Below are positions 20,196 through 39,668 of a DNA stretch of 64,000 nt, piece after piece. This DNA is from Puniceicoccales bacterium (GTDB taxonomy: Bacteria; Verrucomicrobiota; Verrucomicrobiia; Opitutales; JAIRKQ01). The position numbers were made by a program, and so were the translations under genes. Each line of letters begins with the position of its first letter. Positions within the stretch are counted from its first letter, which is position 1. The notes beneath the pieces were generated by a model. It saw nothing but the letters and a program-made list of their open reading frames with translations, was not told where the DNA came from and made no database searches. The stretch is taken from positions 149,229 to 213,228 of the forward strand of contig JAIRXR010000011.1 of the NCBI GenBank assembly GCA_031268175.1, written 5' to 3'.

Positions 20196-21473
20196 ATGCT
20201 ATCACTTGAAGATCTGCGCAGTAACACCGATGCCATAAAGAACGGCGTCCAAAGGAAAAAGTTTCGGTGTGACATCGACGGCTTCCTAGCAGTCGACTCA
20301 AGGCGCAGAGGTTGTATCGCGGAGTTTGAGGAATTGCGTGCGAAGCAAAACGCTGCCAGCGGCGGCGTGGCATCCTTTCCAAAGGGTTCTCCGGAGTTTT
20401 TGCGCGCCACTTCCGAGTTAGGGGAGCTGTCCGCAAAGGTGAAGGATGCGGAAGCAAAAGTCAGGGCAATCGGAGACGAATGGCAGGCGCTCTACTTGAC
20501 AATTCCCAATGTCCCACACGAATCCGTACCTGACGGTAGAACGGAAAAGGACAACGTTACCGTTTCGGAATGGAATCCGAGCGGAGAAATTTCCAAATTC
20601 GCGGTGGCACACTATGACATCCCGTGGTTTTCCAATGCCATAGATTTTCAACGCGGCACAAAGGTATCCGGCGCCGGGTTTCCTTTCTACGTCGGAAACA
20701 TGGCACGCTTCGTGCGTGCACTACTGAATTTTTTTCTCGACGAGGCGAAAAGCAACGGCTACGTCGAATGCCTGTGCCCGATTCTCGTGAATCCGGCGAG
20801 CGCCACGGCCACTGGTCAGCTGCCGGACAAGGAAGGCATGATGTACCGCGCCGCGCTCGACGATTTGTACTGCATCCCAACCGCCGAAGTTCCGCTGACG
20901 AACTTCTTTCGCGGTGAAATTTTCGATGAAAAAGATTTGCCTATTTTCCGCTGCGGCTACACGCCGTGTTTCCGCCGCGAAGCAGGAAGTTGGGGAAGGG
21001 ATGTTCGCGGATTAAATCGCCTGCACCAGTTCGACAAGGTCGAGCTGGTGAAGTTTGTCCATCCGGACGAAAGCTTAGGAGAACTGGAAAAATTGAGGGC
21101 GGACGCGGAAAGGATTCTTCAAAAGCTCGAAATTCCATACCGCGTGCTATCCATTTGCGCTGGTGACATCGGATTCGCACACTCGAAGCAATACGACATA
21201 GAGGCCTGGGCCGGCGGGCAAAAACGCTGGCTCGAAGTTTCCAGCTGCAGCAATTTTACCGATTTTCAGGCACGCCGCGGTGGAATAAAATTTCGATCAA
21301 AGGCTGGTGGTAAAGTCCGCCACGTGCACACGCTGAATGGATCCGGGTTAGCCATTCCCCGCGTATTGGCGGCGATTTTGGAAAATAACCTACAAAGCGA
21401 TCTTTCAGTCGCCGTGCCCTCCGCCCTCCGCCCCTACGTCGGCAAAGAATTTTTAAAATTCGCGGCACTATGA
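20196..21473 (+). CDS. serS: serine--tRNA ligase
   Basis: N-terminal coiled-coil arm plus class II aaRS core motifs (FRREAGS, GSGLAIPR). Length is 425 aa. Confidence 0.9.
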   Translation: MLSLEDLRSNTDAIKNGVQRKKFRCDIDGFLAVDSRRRGCIAEFEELRAKQNAASGGVASFPKGSPEFLRATSELGELSAKVKDAEAKVRAIGDEWQALYLTIPNVPHESVPDGRTEKDNVTVSEWNPSGEISKFAVAHYDIPWFSNAIDFQRGTKVSGAGFPFYVGNMARFVRALLNFFLDEAKSNGYVECLCPILVNPASATATGQLPDKEGMMYRAALDDLYCIPTAEVPLTNFFRGEIFDEKDLPIFRCGYTPCFRREAGSWGRDVRGLNRLHQFDKVELVKFVHPDESLGELEKLRADAERILQKLEIPYRVLSICAGDIGFAHSKQYDIEAWAGGQKRWLEVSSCSNFTDFQARRGGIKFRSKAGGKVRHVHTLNGSGLAIPRVLAAILENNLQSDLSVAVPSALRPYVGKEFLKFAAL

Positions 21474-21676
21474 CCACCGCAGCACCAGGTAAAAATTCAC
21501 AGCCTCGCAATATTTTTTCGACTATTTTCCAGTGCATCTTCATAGGAATATTCATTGCAGTCTTCGTGGCCTTGTTTGTTGGCGGATACAAAGAAGATCG
21601 CCGAAAAAAGGGCGACGCGGATGCCATTGAAATGTTTTTTCAACAATCGGAGAACACTCTCCGGCCTATTTCGTGA
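21470..21676 (+). CDS. small hypothetical membrane protein
   Basis: 68-aa ORF whose ATG overlaps the serS TGA (ATGA), with one TM helix (IFQCIFIGIFIAVFVALFVGG). No homology recognised. Confidence 0.3.
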   Translation: MTTAAPGKNSQPRNIFSTIFQCIFIGIFIAVFVALFVGGYKEDRRKKGDADAIEMFFQQSENTLRPIS

Positions 21677-21970
21677 AAAACCATGATTTGCAGGAAAAAT
21701 TGGAATACGCGAAATTCGCCGCTGATTTGATCATCAGGGGTTCCGCACACAGTGGCTTGAACCGGCACAGAATAAAGTATGAAGTTCCGCTACGCATCGT
21801 CCCAACGCGTACTTTGAAAATTGACCGATAAGGACCTAAAATCTCCGACGGAAGATATTTAGAGCTCCGGCGGACAGAGGACATCGTTCTCGCCCACATC
21901 GCATCCGACGGGAACGCGAATTGTTCAGCGGACAACGGGCAAGGATTAATTCGCAGATGAAGATGAGAGC

Positions 21971-21997
21971 CCCAAAAACAAAAAGGCAGGCAGCCTT
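21971..21997 (-). terminator. rho-independent terminator downstream of feoB
   Basis: Minus-strand hairpin AAGGC-ugccu-GCCUU (21983-21997) followed by UUUUGUUUUUGG (21971-21982), about 26 nt after the feoB stop. Confidence 0.5.
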
Positions 21998-22022
21998 GTT
22001 ACACTTCTTTCGAAAGTCGCCA

Positions 22023-23759
22023 TCAGCCGATGTAGGGCCAGCACACCTCCAAAATTCTCGTCAGTGCAGCTCCAACCGCTATGGAGAGAATGAATGTCCC
22101 GCACCACAGCGAAAGCGCTACCTTCCATCCCATTTCCTTTAGGATGACAATTATGGCGTTGATGCAGGGAACGAATAGGCTCACAACGACAGTCGCAGTT
22201 ACGATTTGAACATTTGTTAAAACTTCCTTCGCCATGTTCAGAACCCCAACGGATGCGAAATCCCTCCTTATGATGCCCATCACGAAAACATCGGCGAATT
22301 CCTTCGGTAAGTGCAAAAGATTTTCCACAATCGGAGCGAGTGCCGATTGCAATCGTCCGAGCATCCCGATCCTATGCAAAACGGCGATGACAATGGAACT
22401 TACAGCAAATATGGGCAGTGACTCCAGCAGAAAATGCTTCGCCTTATGGAACGTCTTTCTGCAGCAATTTTTTAGCGAAGGGATGCGAAGCGGGGGCAAA
22501 CTTTCAACGAACTTCGAGGGACTGCCCTTGAAAAAATAGCCCAATATTTTTCCACTGGCCACCATCAAAGTCAGCATCGTCCCGAGGTAGATGAACCACA
22601 CAGCGACGTTTCCCACGGATGCCAACATGGCAACGATAATTCCCTGCTGCGCCGCGCATGGAACGCATATTCCTATCATCGCCGTCACGATGATTCTCTC
22701 CTTTCGCGAGCCCAAAATCCTCGTCGCCATGGTCCCCATGGCCCCGCATCCAAATCCGAGCAGCGTTGGAATTATCGCCGAGCCATTTAGTCCAAGAAAA
22801 TTGTAGCCCTTGTTGGCCAAAGTGGCCAATCGCGGGATATATCCGGAGTCCTCCAGCGCGGACATGAATACGTAAAATCCCACGATCAGAGGGAACAATA
22901 TGCCGAACACCATCTGCACGACCATAGTCAGCACGCCGAACTCACCAACGAGTATTTCTGAAATCATACCATCGCCGAAACCGGCCATTACAATCTTTGA
23001 AACAAACGGCACGTACCACCTGTCGATGGACGCAAGCAGGTGGTCGACGACAACACCGGAAATGAATACGCCCAATATCTTGAACAGCGCGAACAGGATC
23101 ATGATCGCGATGGGCCATCCCACAATCGGGTTTATCAGAAGCCTGTCTATTTTTTGATACGGAGGCGGCACGACTACATTCGACGACATGCATCTGGCGG
23201 TGATGTCCTCCACCCTAGCGGCGCTGCAGCAATTCGCAAGCAGTGGGCAATGGCAGTGCCTGTGCACGGCGGAAATAATCGCGCGCATGATTTCATACCT
23301 GCCGATATTTTTGACCGCCACTGCCTCCACAACGTCGAGATTGAGCGACCTGGTAAGCTCTTCGAGGTCGATGGAAATTCCGCGTTTTTTTGCCTCATCA
23401 ACCTGGTTAACGACGAAGACCATTTTCTTGCGCGTGTTCAATAGTTGCAGCGTAAGAGTCAAGTCCCTGTCCAACGTCAAGGCATTGACGACGTTCACTA
23501 TCACATCCGCCTCTTCTATGCATTCTTTTGTTATTTTAGCGGCCGGAGAATCTTCGGAGATGTCGTAGATTCCAGGGCTATCTATGAGTTCCCCGAAATG
23601 CAGCTTGGTGCTCGCGAAGGCAACGCTCGTCCCAGGATAATTGCTGATTTCCGCGTATTTCCTGGAAAACATGTTAAAAATTGAAGTTTTTCCAACATTT
23701 GGGTTGCCGACGAGCACTATTTTGTACCTTTTTTTCAGCGCACAGCTGCCGCATGCCAT
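22023..23759 (-). CDS. feoB: ferrous iron transport protein B
   Basis: N-terminal G-domain (VGNPNVGKTS, DSPG) followed by a polytopic membrane domain. No feoA is seen adjacent. The track ORF runs to 23777. Confidence 0.85.
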   Translation of the reverse strand: MACGSCALKKRYKIVLVGNPNVGKTSIFNMFSRKYAEISNYPGTSVAFASTKLHFGELIDSPGIYDISEDSPAAKITKECIEEADVIVNVVNALTLDRDLTLTLQLLNTRKKMVFVVNQVDEAKKRGISIDLEELTRSLNLDVVEAVAVKNIGRYEIMRAIISAVHRHCHCPLLANCCSAARVEDITARCMSSNVVVPPPYQKIDRLLINPIVGWPIAIMILFALFKILGVFISGVVVDHLLASIDRWYVPFVSKIVMAGFGDGMISEILVGEFGVLTMVVQMVFGILFPLIVGFYVFMSALEDSGYIPRLATLANKGYNFLGLNGSAIIPTLLGFGCGAMGTMATRILGSRKERIIVTAMIGICVPCAAQQGIIVAMLASVGNVAVWFIYLGTMLTLMVASGKILGYFFKGSPSKFVESLPPLRIPSLKNCCRKTFHKAKHFLLESLPIFAVSSIVIAVLHRIGMLGRLQSALAPIVENLLHLPKEFADVFVMGIIRRDFASVGVLNMAKEVLTNVQIVTATVVVSLFVPCINAIIVILKEMGWKVALSLWCGTFILSIAVGAALTRILEVCWPYIG

Positions 23760-23918
23760 GTGTGTCTTCGGGTCCAAAGTGATGATTAAAAGGAATGAGT
23801 GTGGAGGGCTAAGGCAATGATAAATTCGAAAATTTTCGCTCCGAAATTTTCGAGATTTTTAAAATTTTATTTTTCCATTGAAATTTCGCGCCGTTCCCTC
23901 ATAAATACCGCCGTTTCA

Positions 23919-25439
23919 ATGGCCACGAGTCAACAGGCATCGGCAAATGCGTCAAAAAAAAACGCCATCTCTCCGGCCCGCGCGGAGAATTTTCCCGAGT
24001 GGTATCAGCAAGTAATCAAAGCCGCTGACCTGGCAGACAATAGCCCGGTGCGCGGATGCATGGTCATTCGCCCCTGGGGGTACGCCATCTGGGAGCTGGT
24101 GCAAAAGCGCCTCGACGCAATGTTCAAGGCAATGGGGCACCAAAACGCCTATTTTCCACTGTTCATACCGCTTGGGTACTTCGAAAGGGAAGCAAGGCAC
24201 GTGGAAGGATTTGCCAAGGAATGCGCCATCGTTACCCATACGCGCTTGCAGCCAGACGGCAAAGGTGGCTTGAAGCCAGCCGCAGCGCTGGAAGAACCGC
24301 TGATCGTTCGCCCGACTTCCGAAACCATAATCGGAGAAATGTTTTCAAAGTGGGTGCACTCGTACCGCGATCTGCCGCTGAAAATTAACCAATGGGCGAA
24401 CGTCGTGCGCTGGGAAATGCGCCCGCGAATGTTTTTGCGCACCACAGAATTTCTATGGCAGGAGGGGCATACTGTGCATGCAATCGGCGAAGAAGCCCAA
24501 AAGGAGGCGCTGGACATGCTCGAATGCTATAGAACTTTCGCGGAGAATTACATGGCGATGCCAGTGATCTGCGGGCAAAAATCGGAATCGGAAAAGTTTC
24601 CCGGAGCTGTCTCAACGTTCACGATCGAAGCAATGATGCAGGATGGCAAAGCTTTGCAGGCTGGCACTTCCCACTTTTTGGGGCAAAATTTTGCCAAATC
24701 TTCTGGCATAAAATTTGTCAGCGAAAGTGGACGCGAGGAATTCGGATGGACGACGTCCTGGGGCGTTACAACGCGCCTGATCGGTGGTCTGATTATGACG
24801 CACTCCGATGACGACGGCCTAGTACTTCCGCCGCAGCTGGCGCCGCTGCAGATTGTGATCTTGCCCATTTACAGGGAAGACTCCAAAGCGGAGGTCCTGG
24901 ATTACTGCAAAAATCTATTCTCTGAGCTATCGGAAATCGCATTCGGCGGCGAAAAACTACGTGTGAAAATCGACGATCGCGACATCCGCGGCGGTGAAAA
25001 ATCATGGGAATTCATAAAAAAGGGCGTTCCCATGCGCATCGAAATCGGCCCACGCGACATTCAAAGCGGGACGCTCTGCGTGTGTAGGCGCGATAGATCT
25101 CCGAGCGAAAAGGAATTCGTCGGCAGGAAGGAGTTTGCAAATTCCATCGGCGAAGTGTTGGGCGCCATGCAAAGTACGCTGTTCCAGCGCGCAAAAAAAT
25201 ACCGCGATGAAAATTCGCAGCGCGTGAACTCCGCGGATGAATTATTTGAATTTTTCAATGGCTGTAATCCGGGCTTTGCCTACGCGCACTTGCACTGCGA
25301 CGGCGCCACCGAGGAACGCGTGAAGAAGGATTTTGGAGCGACCATTCGCTGCCTACCGTTCGAAGAAACGGAATCCGGCACTTGCATTTTCACCGGAAAG
25401 TCGAGTGAGCAAAGGGTCATCCTGGCAAGGAGCTACTAG
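23919..25439 (+). CDS. proS: proline--tRNA ligase, archaeal/eukaryote-like type
   Basis: Class II core with a C-terminal Cys-rich extension (HCDGATEE...C) and no bacterial INS editing domain. The ATG at 23919 lies within track ORF 23799..25439. Confidence 0.85.
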   Translation: MATSQQASANASKKNAISPARAENFPEWYQQVIKAADLADNSPVRGCMVIRPWGYAIWELVQKRLDAMFKAMGHQNAYFPLFIPLGYFEREARHVEGFAKECAIVTHTRLQPDGKGGLKPAAALEEPLIVRPTSETIIGEMFSKWVHSYRDLPLKINQWANVVRWEMRPRMFLRTTEFLWQEGHTVHAIGEEAQKEALDMLECYRTFAENYMAMPVICGQKSESEKFPGAVSTFTIEAMMQDGKALQAGTSHFLGQNFAKSSGIKFVSESGREEFGWTTSWGVTTRLIGGLIMTHSDDDGLVLPPQLAPLQIVILPIYREDSKAEVLDYCKNLFSELSEIAFGGEKLRVKIDDRDIRGGEKSWEFIKKGVPMRIEIGPRDIQSGTLCVCRRDRSPSEKEFVGRKEFANSIGEVLGAMQSTLFQRAKKYRDENSQRVNSADELFEFFNGCNPGFAYAHLHCDGATEERVKKDFGATIRCLPFEETESGTCIFTGKSSEQRVILARSY

Positions 25440-25530
25440 ATTTCGGCCACCGCTCTTCGCCACACACGTCTAAAATCGGCTTGCAATGTGTGAAATTTTC
25501 AATCCGATCTACCCCGTGGCGATGGCCATT

Positions 25531-25607
25531 CGGGGCGTAGCTTAGCCTGGCAGAGCGTTACGTTAGGGACGTAAAGGTCGCTGGTTCAAATCCAGTCGCC
25601 CCGACCA
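25531..25607 (+). tRNA. tRNA-Pro, anticodon apparently AGG
   Basis: 77-nt cloverleaf folded by hand. The acceptor is CGGGGCG/CGCCCCG with a C1:G72 pair and A73 (bacterial tRNA-Pro identity elements). The D loop has GG, the T loop is TTCAAAT, and the anticodon stem TTACG/CGTAA encloses the loop TTAGGGA. CCA is encoded. Confidence 0.7.
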
Positions 25608-25673
25608 TCGGGTTTTGGAGCGTTCTCGCCGGCGTCGGATCACTTTGGCGTTGAAAATTTTGCCCTTTGGTCC

Positions 25674-26987
25674 ATGAGTTTACCCATGTCCACATTTCAG
25701 ACACTGCCGGGATTTAGAGAGTTCTATCCAGGAGACTGTGCCGTCAGAAATTTCATCTTCGACCACTTTCGGCGAACGGCGAAATCGTTTGCCTTCGAGG
25801 AATACGATGCCCCCATCATCGAGCCCATGGAACTGTTCACCGCAAAATCCGGCGATGAAATCGTCTCCCAGCTGTTCAATTTCGAGGACAGGGGCGGGCG
25901 ACAAATTTCAATGCGGCCGGAGCTGACGCCGTCGCTTGTCAAAATGATCGGCAATAGGGCGAATGCTATGAAAAAGCCGATAAAATGGTTCAACATCGGA
26001 GAACAATTCCGCTACGAGCGGCCGCAGAAGGGAAGGCTCCGCTCATTTTACCAATTTAATGCCGATATCATAGGAGACGATTCGCCGGGCGCGGACGCTG
26101 AAATCGTCGCCCTTGCCATTCAAACGCTGCGAAATTTTGCGCTGACGCGGAGCGATTTTCGCGTACGCCTTAGCGATCGCAAGCTATGGGCGGCATTTTT
26201 CGAGTCTCACGGCTTAGATGGCACCGATACCCAGGCCGCGCTGGTCGCAATTGACAAAAGCGAACGCGAAGGCGAGGCAAAGACGCTGGAAGCCGTGGAA
26301 AAAATTTGCCCATCCAACGCCGGGAAAATTTTCGAAGGAATTCAAAGGCTCAAAAATGTGCATTCGCCGCGGGACCTGGAAAAATTCTGCGCAACTTGTG
26401 AAAATTTAGCCGACGCTGCCAGCGGATGCGCCGAGTTTTTTGCACTGCTGAAGCGCATGGATGAGTTTGGCCTGTCGGACTTTGTGACCATTGATTTCGG
26501 CGTAGTCCGCGGCCTGGCGTATTACACGGGGTTCGTCTTCGAAATATTCGAAAATTCCGGCCAATCGCGCGCGCTGGCCGGAGGTGGAAGATACGACAAT
26601 CTGTTTGGGAAGCTCGGCTATTCCGGCCTGCCTGCCGTTGGATTTGCAATCGGTGATGTCACCCTGGGCAACCTCCTAGGCGAAAAAAATCTCATCCCGC
26701 CACTGCCAAGGGAAGTACGCTGCTTCATAGTCTACACCGAGCAGACGGAAAAAATTGCCATGGCGAAAGTGATTGCTCTCCGCGAACGCAACGTTGACGT
26801 TGACTATTGCCTAAGCCCCACAAGCTTTGGCAAACAGCTGAAAGCCGCTTCCCAAGTCGGTGCGAAATTTGCCATAATTTTCGGAGACGAAGAGGTGAAG
26901 GCCAACGGCGTAAAGATCAAAAACATGCTAAGCGGCGAAGAGAAGCCCGTTGAAATCAGCAAACTCGCGGAAGTGATTTCCCAATGA
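25674..26987 (+). CDS. hisS: histidine--tRNA ligase
   Basis: Class II motifs (FRYERPQKGR, GGGRYD), a HisRS-specific arrangement and a C-terminal anticodon-binding domain. Confidence 0.9.
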   Translation: MSLPMSTFQTLPGFREFYPGDCAVRNFIFDHFRRTAKSFAFEEYDAPIIEPMELFTAKSGDEIVSQLFNFEDRGGRQISMRPELTPSLVKMIGNRANAMKKPIKWFNIGEQFRYERPQKGRLRSFYQFNADIIGDDSPGADAEIVALAIQTLRNFALTRSDFRVRLSDRKLWAAFFESHGLDGTDTQAALVAIDKSEREGEAKTLEAVEKICPSNAGKIFEGIQRLKNVHSPRDLEKFCATCENLADAASGCAEFFALLKRMDEFGLSDFVTIDFGVVRGLAYYTGFVFEIFENSGQSRALAGGGRYDNLFGKLGYSGLPAVGFAIGDVTLGNLLGEKNLIPPLPREVRCFIVYTEQTEKIAMAKVIALRERNVDVDYCLSPTSFGKQLKAASQVGAKFAIIFGDEEVKANGVKIKNMLSGEEKPVEISKLAEVISQ

Positions 26988-27405: not shown

Positions 27406-27891
27406 ATGAGCAGCAGTAAAACAAAAGTTGAAGATGCGTTGAGCAATCTGGCGTTGCGGTTGAAGCTGGAGTCGTTGAAACTCAACGATCGCGACGAAAC
27501 CTATTTGCTATTTGATCAAAAATTTCACGTGACGTGTGTGTTTGACGAAGAAAAGGACGAATTCATTCTCACATCCATCGTCGGAGATTTGGCAAAAAAC
27601 TCGATTGAGGCCTACAAAAAGCTACTCAATGACAATTTTTTCTGGGCTGGCACGGCGGGGTCGCGCCTGTTCCTCGATCCCGGGAGCGGCGACGAACCGG
27701 ACACAATCACAATAAAGGAAACCATTCCCGTCGCAATGTTCGACGAGGAGCGGCTCTACGAGCGCATGGAAGATTTTGTGAACGCGGTCGAATATTGGAG
27801 CACTGAATATCCAAAATTGAGCCAGGGCGGTGGTGTGGCGGTGGCAGCTCCGCAGGTGAGCATCTCTGACTTCGGCATGATGAGCGCATAG
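27406..27891 (+). CDS. type III secretion class I chaperone-like protein (CesT/SycE family)
   Basis: 161 aa, acidic. The core ETYLLFDQKFHVTCVFDEEKDEFILTSIVGDL followed by LNDNFFWAGTAGSRLFLDP parallels the CesT pattern ([26 protein letters not shown] ... LNANLWFAENGG). Recognised from memory of the family, not by a search. Confidence 0.55.
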   Translation: MSSSKTKVEDALSNLALRLKLESLKLNDRDETYLLFDQKFHVTCVFDEEKDEFILTSIVGDLAKNSIEAYKKLLNDNFFWAGTAGSRLFLDPGSGDEPDTITIKETIPVAMFDEERLYERMEDFVNAVEYWSTEYPKLSQGGGVAVAAPQVSISDFGMMSA

Positions 27892-39482: not shown

Positions 39483-39558
39483 TGGAGCCGAGGATGAGAT
39501 TCGAACTCACGACCCACGCATTACGAATGCGTTGCTCTACCAGCTGAGCTACCTCGGC
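39483..39558 (-). tRNA. tRNA-Thr (anticodon CGT)
   Basis: Reverse complement GCCGAGGTAGCTCAGCTGGTAGAGCAACGCATTCGTAATGCGTGGGTCGTGAGTTCGAATCTCATCCTCGGCTCCA folds into a canonical cloverleaf with anticodon loop TTCGTAA and encoded CCA. Confidence 0.8.
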
Positions 39559-39592: not shown

Positions 39593-39668
39593 TGGAGCCG
39601 ACTATCAGATTCGAACTGATGACCGTCCGCTTACAAGGCGGGTGCTCTACCAGCTGAGCTAAGTCGGC
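39593..39668 (-). tRNA. tRNA-Thr (anticodon TGT)
   Basis: Reverse complement GCCGACTTAGCTCAGCTGGTAGAGCACCCGCCTTGTAAGCGGACGGTCATCAGTTCGAATCTGATAGTCGGCTCCA, with anticodon loop CTTGTAA and encoded CCA. Confidence 0.8.

Follow-up and report, generated by a model that had tools for sequence, protein, structure and literature searches.

Why would a bacterium encode a proline tRNA whose anticodon starts with A? The question is raised by a 77-nucleotide (nt) tRNA-Pro(AGG) gene, with its CCA encoded, at 25531..25607 (+) of a 64,000-nt stretch of DNA from a Puniceicoccales bacterium (Verrucomicrobiota; assembly GCA_031268175.1, contig JAIRXR010000011.1); we refer to this whole stretch as the window. 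Outside tRNA-Arg(ACG), anticodons that start with A are almost never found in bacteria, an unexplained avoidance on which this gene bears. An earlier note, made from the letters of the window, framed the matter as a choice between expanded use of inosine at position 34 (I34) and an unusual decoding arrangement. Our analysis shows that the gene is a real, canonical and conserved bacterial-type tRNA-Pro with an encoded A34, identified by ARAGORN, by the Rfam family RF00005, by identity to a sister species and by covariation of the cloverleaf in homologues. On balance, we lean towards a maintained proline tRNA that keeps A34 unmodified and decodes CCU and CCC.

ARAGORN reports Pro(AGG), Thr(CGU) and Thr(UGU) as the three tRNA genes of the window and places the first, with anticodon agg, exactly at 25531-25607 (+). 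RF00005 matches 25531-25604 over the full model length at 62.3 bits (gathering score 29, E = 4e-11), with no non-canonical pairs flagged; a permissive Rfam search of 25200-25900 returned no other RNA family at E <= 1. The tRNA reads CGGGGCG-UA-GCUU-AGCCUGGCA-GAGC-G-UUACG-UUAGGGA-CGUAA-AGGUC-GCUGG-UUCAAAU-CCAGU-CGCCCCG-A-CCA, in which sequence reading and the cmscan alignment place the anticodon loop UUAGGGA (U32 U33 A34 G35 G36 G37 A38) at 25563..25569 (+), with A34 at position 25565. The fold and the AGG anticodon proposed in the earlier note are recovered alike by ARAGORN, Rfam and sequence reading. The acceptor stem, CGGGGCG/CGCCCCG, has C1:G72 as its first pair and is followed by the discriminator A73 and by CCA at 25605-25607, so the two identity elements named in that note are present; G18 G19, T54 T55 C56 and the G15:C48 pair are all found as well. 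Because the 5-bp anticodon stem UUACG/CGUAA, which covaries in homologues, is perfect, there is no alternative register that gives GGG.

The gene has the features of a bacterial tRNA-Pro: a canonical cloverleaf that scores as a tRNA and covaries in four helices, an NGG anticodon with G35 and G36 followed by G37, and the C1:G72 and A73 acceptor end. It has none of the marks of a tRNA pseudogene (low score, broken stems, no conservation). The earlier note had named a different anticodon or a pseudogene score as what would overturn it; AGG was called, and the score of 62.3 bits compares with a gathering score of 29. In eukaryotic tRNA-Pro, the acceptor features are G1:C72 and C73, and the eukaryotic tRNA-Pro(AGG) is non-complementary at 32/38, whereas the gene in the window carries C1:G72, A73 and U32-A38. 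We regard it as almost certainly a genuine, functional tRNA-Pro(AGG).

Conservation was assessed by comparing proS loci from relatives at falling prolyl-tRNA synthetase (ProRS) identity. In the sister species, whose ProRS is 81% identical and which is represented by L170 (ENA ERZ28642372) and L527 (Logan SRR8296328), tRNA-Pro(AGG) lies in the same proS-hisS spacer. The tRNA of L527 is identical to that of the window at 77/77 bases and that of L170 at 76/77, one acceptor position differing; the mismatch in L170, G5:A68, is absent from L527, and because the two are the same species the difference is a variant or an error. Around the unchanged tRNA, window and L527 share 15/37 bases in the 37 nt after the proS stop and 14/37 in the 37 nt after the tRNA, 47/58 in the block upstream of the tRNA and 30/37 in a block proximal to hisS. 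This pattern is the one that would be expected of a selected gene with an upstream control region of its own.

These comparisons also bear on whether A34 is real. One could suspect a sequencing or assembly error, or a decaying copy of a tRNA-Pro(GGG), given that the source is a metagenome-assembled genome (MAG), that tRNAs with A-starting (ANN) anticodons are rare and that L170 carries the G5:A68 mismatch. However, A34 agrees across three independent assemblies from different projects (JGI/NCBI MAG, ENA ERZ28642372 and Logan SRR8296328), which excludes an assembly error, and two further Verrucomicrobial genomes have the same loop. The tRNA is unchanged in L527 while its flanks have diverged, the changes in its stems among homologues are compensatory, its Rfam score exceeds the gathering score more than twofold, CCA is encoded, the upstream block is conserved, and the mismatch of L170 is missing from the same species in L527. 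The artefact or pseudogene reading is effectively refuted, and we assign it a negligible probability.

More distant relatives lack the gene at this position: no tRNA follows proS in L001, L002, L003, L171 or L172 (ProRS 73-77% identical) or in L528 (76%). In L001 and L002, the proS-hisS spacer is 43 bp, and the ~200-bp segment that holds the tRNA and its flanks in the window (25440..25640, +) is absent from it. The hisS-proximal block (TCACTTTGGCGTTGAAAATTTTGCCCTTTGGTCCAT...; 25641..25673, +), kept in L001, L002, L170 and L527 (30/37), is homologous to this short ancestral spacer. Either the common ancestor of the window lineage and L170/L527 acquired the ~200-bp segment, or other lineages lost it.

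Homologues elsewhere in the phylum show that the tRNA is not confined to this locus. A scan of 185,579 GTDB species genomes for the pattern CGGNNNNTRGC ... TAGGG ... GGTTCRAATCC, which gave at least 120 matching loci (L004-L123), recovered two further Verrucomicrobial tRNA-Pro(AGG) genes, 89% identical to that of the window, in the MAG Puniceicoccales Cc175_bin98 (L093) and in an uncultured Verrucomicrobia MAG (L019). The loop UUAGGGA is invariant across the four Verrucomicrobial AGG tRNAs, and the anticodon stem varies by compensatory changes (U27-A43 versus C27-G43; G31-C39 versus C31-G39). A seven-sequence alignment, in which related CGG and UGG tRNAs are included, has 99.3% of its cells paired and six pairs that change on both sides; 0/500 shuffles reach the values of the alignment, and slid controls pair at 34-49%. 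The contexts differ, the L093 tRNA lying beside ruvB and the L019 tRNA near tRNA-Met, tRNA-Leu(GAG) and a transketolase fragment.

Upstream sequence is shared across these contexts. The conserved block 5′ of the tRNA in the window (25476..25530, +; the 47/58 block noted above) contains a -35-like TTGCAA (25481-25486, +), the motif TTTTCAATCC (25496-25505, +) and a possible -10 element, GATCTA (25506-25511, +), and is probably a promoter of the tRNA's own. A CTTGC(A/C) box stands ~45-55 nt 5′ of the tRNA in 4/4 Verrucomicrobial loci; TTTTC(A/C)ATCC is common to the window, L170/L527 and L093 despite the other genomic context of L093, whose upstream region reads TTGCAT-17 nt-GATATT. To judge from these shared motifs, the gene has probably moved within these genomes along with its own putative promoter. 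As a separate observation, tRNA-Leu(GAG) adjoins a proline tRNA twice, Pro(UGG) in L172 (1753-1924, -) and, on the opposite strand, Pro(AGG) in L019 (7084-7493); the adjacency may be a remnant of an ancestral tRNA cluster that the AGG gene left.

A metagenome scan with the family backbone pattern and position 34 left free found 41 CGG and 5 UGG tRNAs, and 0 with AGG or GGG. MutS from a single contig (L158) of the predominant CGG group matches Casimicrobiaceae/Betaproteobacteria, and for this reason we take the backbone pattern as not lineage-specific. The tRNA-Pro(CGG) genes of L124-L169 (JGI metagenome), apparently from soil Casimicrobiaceae/Betaproteobacteria, reach 92% identity (~71/77) to the window tRNA-Pro(AGG), higher than the 89% of the same-phylum AGG homologues, and share its unusual GCUUAGCCUGGYAGAGC D-arm.

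A segment missing from close relatives, homologues at different loci in other Verrucomicrobia, an anticodon that is the eukaryotic one for proline and five IMG/VR contigs with a generic Pro(AGG) could together suggest foreign cargo, carried in on a phage or mobile element, or taken up from a eukaryote along with the eukaryote-type ProRS. We consider this very improbable. No integrase or phage gene lies nearby, the neighbours being serS, feoB, proS, hisS, an Fe-S assembly protein gene, cesT and a GNAT gene; the family backbone pattern has 0 matches in the 2.9 million viral contigs of IMG/VR, and GenBank phages give only generic tRNA-Pro matches at ~77%. The phage or integrative genes and viral matches that would mark a phage- or mobile-element-borne tRNA are thus not found here. 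C1:G72, A73 and U32-A38 are bacterial features; at 32/38 in particular, Watson-Crick-capable pairs are typical of bacterial four-box tRNAs, whereas eukaryotic A34 tRNAs are non-complementary there (PMC7293025). Among the matches listed, the nearest AGG homologues belong to the same order or phylum. Because the tRNA is of bacterial type, has homologues elsewhere and is lacking after proS in relatives with the same ProRS type, its position beside a eukaryote-type ProRS gene appears incidental, with no functional tie.

How unusual is such a tRNA among bacteria? ARAGORN confirms tRNA-Pro(AGG) in 116/120 of the GTDB loci among the matches listed, with 119 genes in more than 10 lineages; lineages were assigned from record titles, and all lineage counts are lower bounds. 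There are at least 44 genes in Cytophagales sensu lato (Cyclobacteriaceae, Fulvivirga, Reichenbachiella, Roseivirgaceae, Flammeovirgaceae and Amoebophilaceae), at least 32 in Lachnospiraceae, at least 5 in Succinivibrionaceae and at least 2 in Verrucomicrobia. The remainder is scattered over Flavobacteriales, Prevotella, Chlorobiota, Acidobacteriota, Kazan and Kaiserbacteria (both Candidate Phyla Radiation, CPR), Burkholderiales, Enterobacterales, Erysipelotrichaceae and others. In Cytophagales and Lachnospiraceae, the tRNA looks fixed at clade level. All 119 surveyed AGG tRNAs have C1, a base that the search pattern itself demanded. Among the Cytophagales carriers are the cultured Fulvivirga sediminis, Fulvivirga sp. 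M361 and Reichenbachiella versicolor DC003; Succinatimonas hippei YIT 12066 and Lientehia hominis NSJ-141 are further cultured carriers from the scan. The loop UUAGGGU (U38), which human tRNA-Pro(AGG) also has, occurs in about half of the Cytophagales tRNAs among the matches listed. In IMG/VR, the same-pattern control gave the 5 AGG contigs and at least 120 each for GGG, UGG and CGG, making AGG at least ~24-fold rarer there than each canonical proline anticodon.

Rare bacterial Pro(AGG) genes were noted in 2011, including that of Ca. Amoebophilus asiaticus 5a2 (Neef et al. 2011, PMC3296467). More recently, 695 non-ACG ANN tRNA genes, mostly Leu-AAG and Thr-AGU, were counted in 4,047 GtRNAdb bacteria, and the genera with a fixed ANN tRNA were all AT-rich (Raval et al. 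2026, bioRxiv 10.64898/2026.05.15.725136). The earlier note took tRNA-Arg(ACG) as normally the only bacterial tRNA with A34; this holds as a rule but has exceptions, among them the documented Leu-AAG, Thr-AGU and Ser-AGA of Firmicutes (bioRxiv 10.64898/2026.05.15.725136), the Pro(AGG) genes noted in 2011 and the 116/120 loci listed here. Our literature search found no description of Pro(AGG) in Verrucomicrobia, in Lachnospiraceae or in Cytophagales beyond Amoebophilus. The Verrucomicrobial gene is a further case of a rare, already recorded kind of bacterial tRNA.

In the cell, the encoded A34 may become inosine or stay an unedited adenosine. ProRS recognises G35, G36 and the acceptor end (A73, C1:G72) and leaves position 34 free, where normal isoacceptors have C, U or G; TrmD makes m1G37 where G37 comes after G36. 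Because these identity elements are intact and position 34 varies among proline isoacceptors, we would expect ProRS to charge the tRNA with proline, and because the G36-G37 motif is present, TrmD would be expected to methylate G37. The reading that we favour, with a little better than even confidence, is that of a maintained proline tRNA with unmodified A34 that decodes CCU and CCC. It would have a promoter of its own within the proS-hisS spacer and would take the slot usual for tRNA-Pro(GGG). CCU would be read by Watson-Crick pairing, and CCC, and weakly CCA and CCG, by 'two-out-of-three' or superwobble reading, an extension for which the proline box, with its two strong G:C pairs, leaves room. 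A change to A at position 34 of a proline isoacceptor would then be nearly neutral and could be fixed without any change in the tRNA adenosine deaminase TadA, which would explain its scattered occurrence over many bacterial lineages. We thus infer expression, charging, decoding range, the unmodified state and the replacement of a GGG isoacceptor.

Analogous tRNAs are the basis for this reading. They favour an A34 that stays unmodified. In E. coli, the Pro-tRNA(AGG) made by a chromosomal proL G34A mutant carries no modification and reaches the wild-type level (bioRxiv 10.64898/2026.05.15.725136), and the corresponding Salmonella proL A34 mutant, in the account given of Chen et al. 2002 in PMC11066159, is likewise unmodified. 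These tRNAs read CCU and CCC and stand in for tRNA-Pro(GGG) (PMC11066159; bioRxiv 10.64898/2026.05.15.725136). In E. coli, an AGG-anticodon tRNA of Methanocaldococcus jannaschii (M. jannaschii) escapes deamination and reads CCU and CCC at 56:44 and all four proline codons detectably (PMC11066159). In Oenococcus oeni (O. oeni), the A34 tRNAs that contain G35 (Thr and Ser) are unmodified, whereas the A34 tRNAs for Arg and Leu are edited (PMC8072771). The choice between expanded I34 and unusual decoding was thus a fair framing, yet I34 is not required, as the proL G34A tRNAs are unmodified and still functional. Decoding of CCU and CCC in place of the GGG isoacceptor is, by analogy, the most likely role, because GGG neighbours number 0 among the 116 listed AGG loci (nearby genes being 7 CGG and 3 UGG), because Blattabacterium shows a GGG-to-AGG change at an orthologous gene (PMC3296467) and because Leu-AAG takes the place of Leu-GAG in Lactobacillales (bioRxiv 10.64898/2026.05.15.725136).

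Several observations weigh against an unmodified CCU/CCC decoder, some of them by speaking for a rival in which a TadA of widened specificity deaminates A34, giving a tRNA-Pro(IGG) that reads CCU, CCC and CCA as in eukaryotes. The TadA loop consensus is YUACGAA in E. coli and, with position 35 relaxed, YUAMGRA in Streptococcus pyogenes (S. pyogenes) (PMC11472039). The loop UUAGGGA differs from the former at 35 and 37 and from the latter only at 35 (G, not A/C), matching at 6/7 positions, so that a lineage-specific TadA could accept it. Widening at position 35 has precedent, since S. pyogenes and O. oeni both edit their tRNA-Leu(AAG) completely (PMC11472039, PMC8072771, PMC13249217); C35 is solvent-exposed and linked to TadA by just one hydrogen bond (PMC11472039), and ANN tRNAs generally co-occur with TadA (bioRxiv 10.64898/2026.05.15.725136). 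Moreover, tadA adjoins proline tRNA genes at two of the surveyed loci. In a Chlorobiota MAG (L071, 4474-5297), a homologue 43% identical to E. coli TadA lies ~215 bp from a tandem Pro(AGG)/Pro(CGG), and in a Kazan (CPR) genome (L046, 5851-6397), one at 39% identity lies 53 bp after Pro(CGG), with Pro(AGG) ~3.9 kb away. Complete conservation across a long divergence would be just as natural for an I34 tRNA that has been optimised.

Against editing, A34 sits in a 7-nt stem-closed loop as a TadA substrate requires, but the loop does not match the consensus. In all direct tests of an AGG anticodon in bacteria that PMC11066159 and bioRxiv 10.64898/2026.05.15.725136 describe, no inosine was found, and O. 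oeni does not modify its A34 tRNAs with G35 (PMC8072771). The tadA adjacency is weak, with 2/116 listed loci compared with a rough chance estimate of ~0.3-0.5, and the scatter over many phyla would demand many independent TadA adaptations. We therefore regard tRNA-Pro(IGG) as a possible but doubtful outcome, and hold equally tentatively that the TadA of these Puniceicoccales, and perhaps also those of the Cytophagales and Lachnospiraceae carriers, evolved to accept a loop with G35. If true, this would be an independent, eukaryote-like spread of wobble inosine to the proline box, which has not been demonstrated in any bacterium.

The remaining points of this kind concern codon usage, transcription and gene content. 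In 50 long open reading frames (ORFs) of the window (n = 625 proline codons), CCU makes up 0.08, CCC 0.17, CCA 0.30 and CCG 0.45; at 8%, CCU is the rarest proline codon, so codon usage gives the favoured reading no clear support. In the sister species with the tRNA, proline U/(U+C) is 0.15, on just 26 codons, and the share of CCU is even lower. A scan of the proS-hisS spacer for a consensus sigma-70 promoter and a terminator found none. Finally, a tblastn search with the E. coli proteins found no tadA or trmD homologue in the 64-kb window, and because these genes and the other proline isoacceptors lie outside it, the filling of the GGG slot is argued by analogy.

Given the fractions of CCU and CCC, an unmodified Pro(AGG) would serve minority codons, and the enrichment in U-ending codons of AT-rich Firmicutes with Leu-AAG is absent from the window. 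We compared it with the pooled relatives L001, L002, L003, L171, L172 and L528, which have no tRNA at this locus and may carry AGG elsewhere. U/(U+C) is lower in the window in seven four-codon boxes (odds ratio (OR) 0.27-0.69), in line with a G+C content at third codon positions of 0.60, compared with 0.45 in the relatives. Proline is the only four-codon box without this decrease (0.32 versus 0.33, OR 0.98), and the unchanged value could mean that CCU is relatively favoured, but the trend runs the other way in the sister species (26 codons).

The closest known counterparts are the Bacteroidota genes of Ca. Amoebophilus asiaticus 5a2 and Blattabacterium BPam (BPLAN_621), which have the same anticodon on a bacterial-type proline tRNA and were interpreted as a GGG-to-AGG change that still decodes proline (PMC3296467); Amoebophilaceae and many other Cytophagales were recovered by our GTDB scan. 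Unlike these cases, the window belongs to Verrucomicrobia, order Puniceicoccales, and is not AT-rich (~51% G+C), and whereas the Blattabacterium gene is annotated as a possible pseudogene, the present gene is canonical and strictly conserved. The proL G34A tRNAs of E. coli (Raval et al. 2026, bioRxiv 10.64898/2026.05.15.725136) and of Salmonella (Chen et al. 2002, according to PMC11066159) have the same A34, G35, G36 and G37 on a bacterial proline backbone and are the mechanistic model that we adopt. They are engineered or selected laboratory mutants, stable and unmodified according to those accounts, whereas the gene in the window is naturally fixed, kept across species and known here from its sequence. 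tRNA-Leu(AAG) of Streptococcus, Lactobacillales and Oenococcus is likewise an A34 tRNA for an amino acid other than Arg; it belongs to a four-codon box, is fixed in clades and apparently replaces a G34 isoacceptor (PMC11472039, PMC13249217, PMC8072771). It has A35 and demonstrated I34, an expanded TadA turning its anticodon into IAG, whereas the window tRNA has G35; the genomes that carry it are AT-rich and use many codons ending in U, whereas CCU is the least used proline codon in the window.

Eukaryotic cytosolic tRNA-Pro(AGG), which ADAT2/3 edits to IGG, has the same encoded anticodon and the same G37, and differs at the acceptor end and at 32/38 as described above. To our knowledge, the heterodimeric ADAT2/3 is not a bacterial enzyme. 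Mycoplasma tRNA-Thr(AGU) has an unmodified A34. tRNA-Thr(AGU) and tRNA-Ser(AGA) of O. oeni likewise combine a natural A34 with G35 in a four-codon box and are unmodified despite TadA (PMC8072771). These A34 tRNAs of O. oeni and Mycoplasma serve other amino acids and have another base at position 36, whereas the two G:C pairs of the proline box favour reading beyond U.

Raval et al. 2026 (bioRxiv 10.64898/2026.05.15.725136) show ANN tRNAs of four-codon boxes to be neutral in E. coli, or even beneficial, which sharpens the puzzle of their absence from bacteria. A conserved Pro(AGG) in a genome region of ordinary G+C content that uses CCU least among the proline codons is at odds with the usual explanation by AT-richness and U-ending codons. 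Cultured members of carrier clades (Fulvivirga, Reichenbachiella, Succinatimonas and Lientehia) offer natural systems in which long-term use of an unmodified A34 and repeated widening of TadA can be told apart. For annotation, it follows that a Pro(AGG) call in a bacterial MAG is not necessarily an error.

The flanking genes agree with the placement given in the earlier note, between a eukaryote-type ProRS gene and hisS, as the domains of both neighbours confirm. The gene order is serS, feoB (minus strand), proS, tRNA, hisS, an Fe-S assembly protein gene, a CesT-family chaperone gene and a GNAT acetyltransferase gene, and G+C is ~51% all through the window. The upstream ORF, proS (23817..25439, +), is 100% identical to 'MAG: proline--tRNA ligase [Puniceicoccales bacterium]' (MDR1433438.1), encoded on a 271-kb contig; the database product has 540 amino acids (aa), and homology to relatives begins near 23919. 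Its Pfam domains are tRNA-synt_2b (PF00587), HGTP_anticodon (PF03129) and ProRS-C_1 (PF09180), without the INS editing domain, an architecture that is archaeal/eukaryote-like; catalytic core, anticodon-binding domain and C-terminal domain are all intact. Downstream, hisS (25674..26987, +) encodes a histidyl-tRNA synthetase with PF13393 (tRNA-synt_His, 1.1e-44) and PF03129.

A palindromic TTGAAAATTT-type motif occurs twice in the spacer, at 25484-25502 (5′ of the tRNA) and 25651-25669 (5′ of hisS), as 19-nt arms that are 79% complementary. We rejected this inverted repeat as the mark of a mobile element, the hisS-proximal copy being present in the 43-bp spacer of relatives as well; the motif could be a shared promoter or operator element. 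The class II aminoacyl-tRNA synthetase genes serS, proS and hisS cluster at 20196-26987, a linkage kept in L001 and L002 and partly in L171, L172 and L528. Between serS and proS lies feoB in the window (22023-23777, minus), nothing in L001 and an unrelated 377-aa ORF in L002. The CesT-family protein, a type III secretion chaperone, is encoded at 27406-27891 (+; PF05932, 3.9e-13) and in the same position in L001 and L002, which hints at a host-associated lifestyle of the group. The two tRNA-Thr genes, CGU and UGU, stand in tandem at 39483-39558 and 39593-39668 (-), 34 bp apart, with Rfam scores of 70.1 and 68.1 bits.

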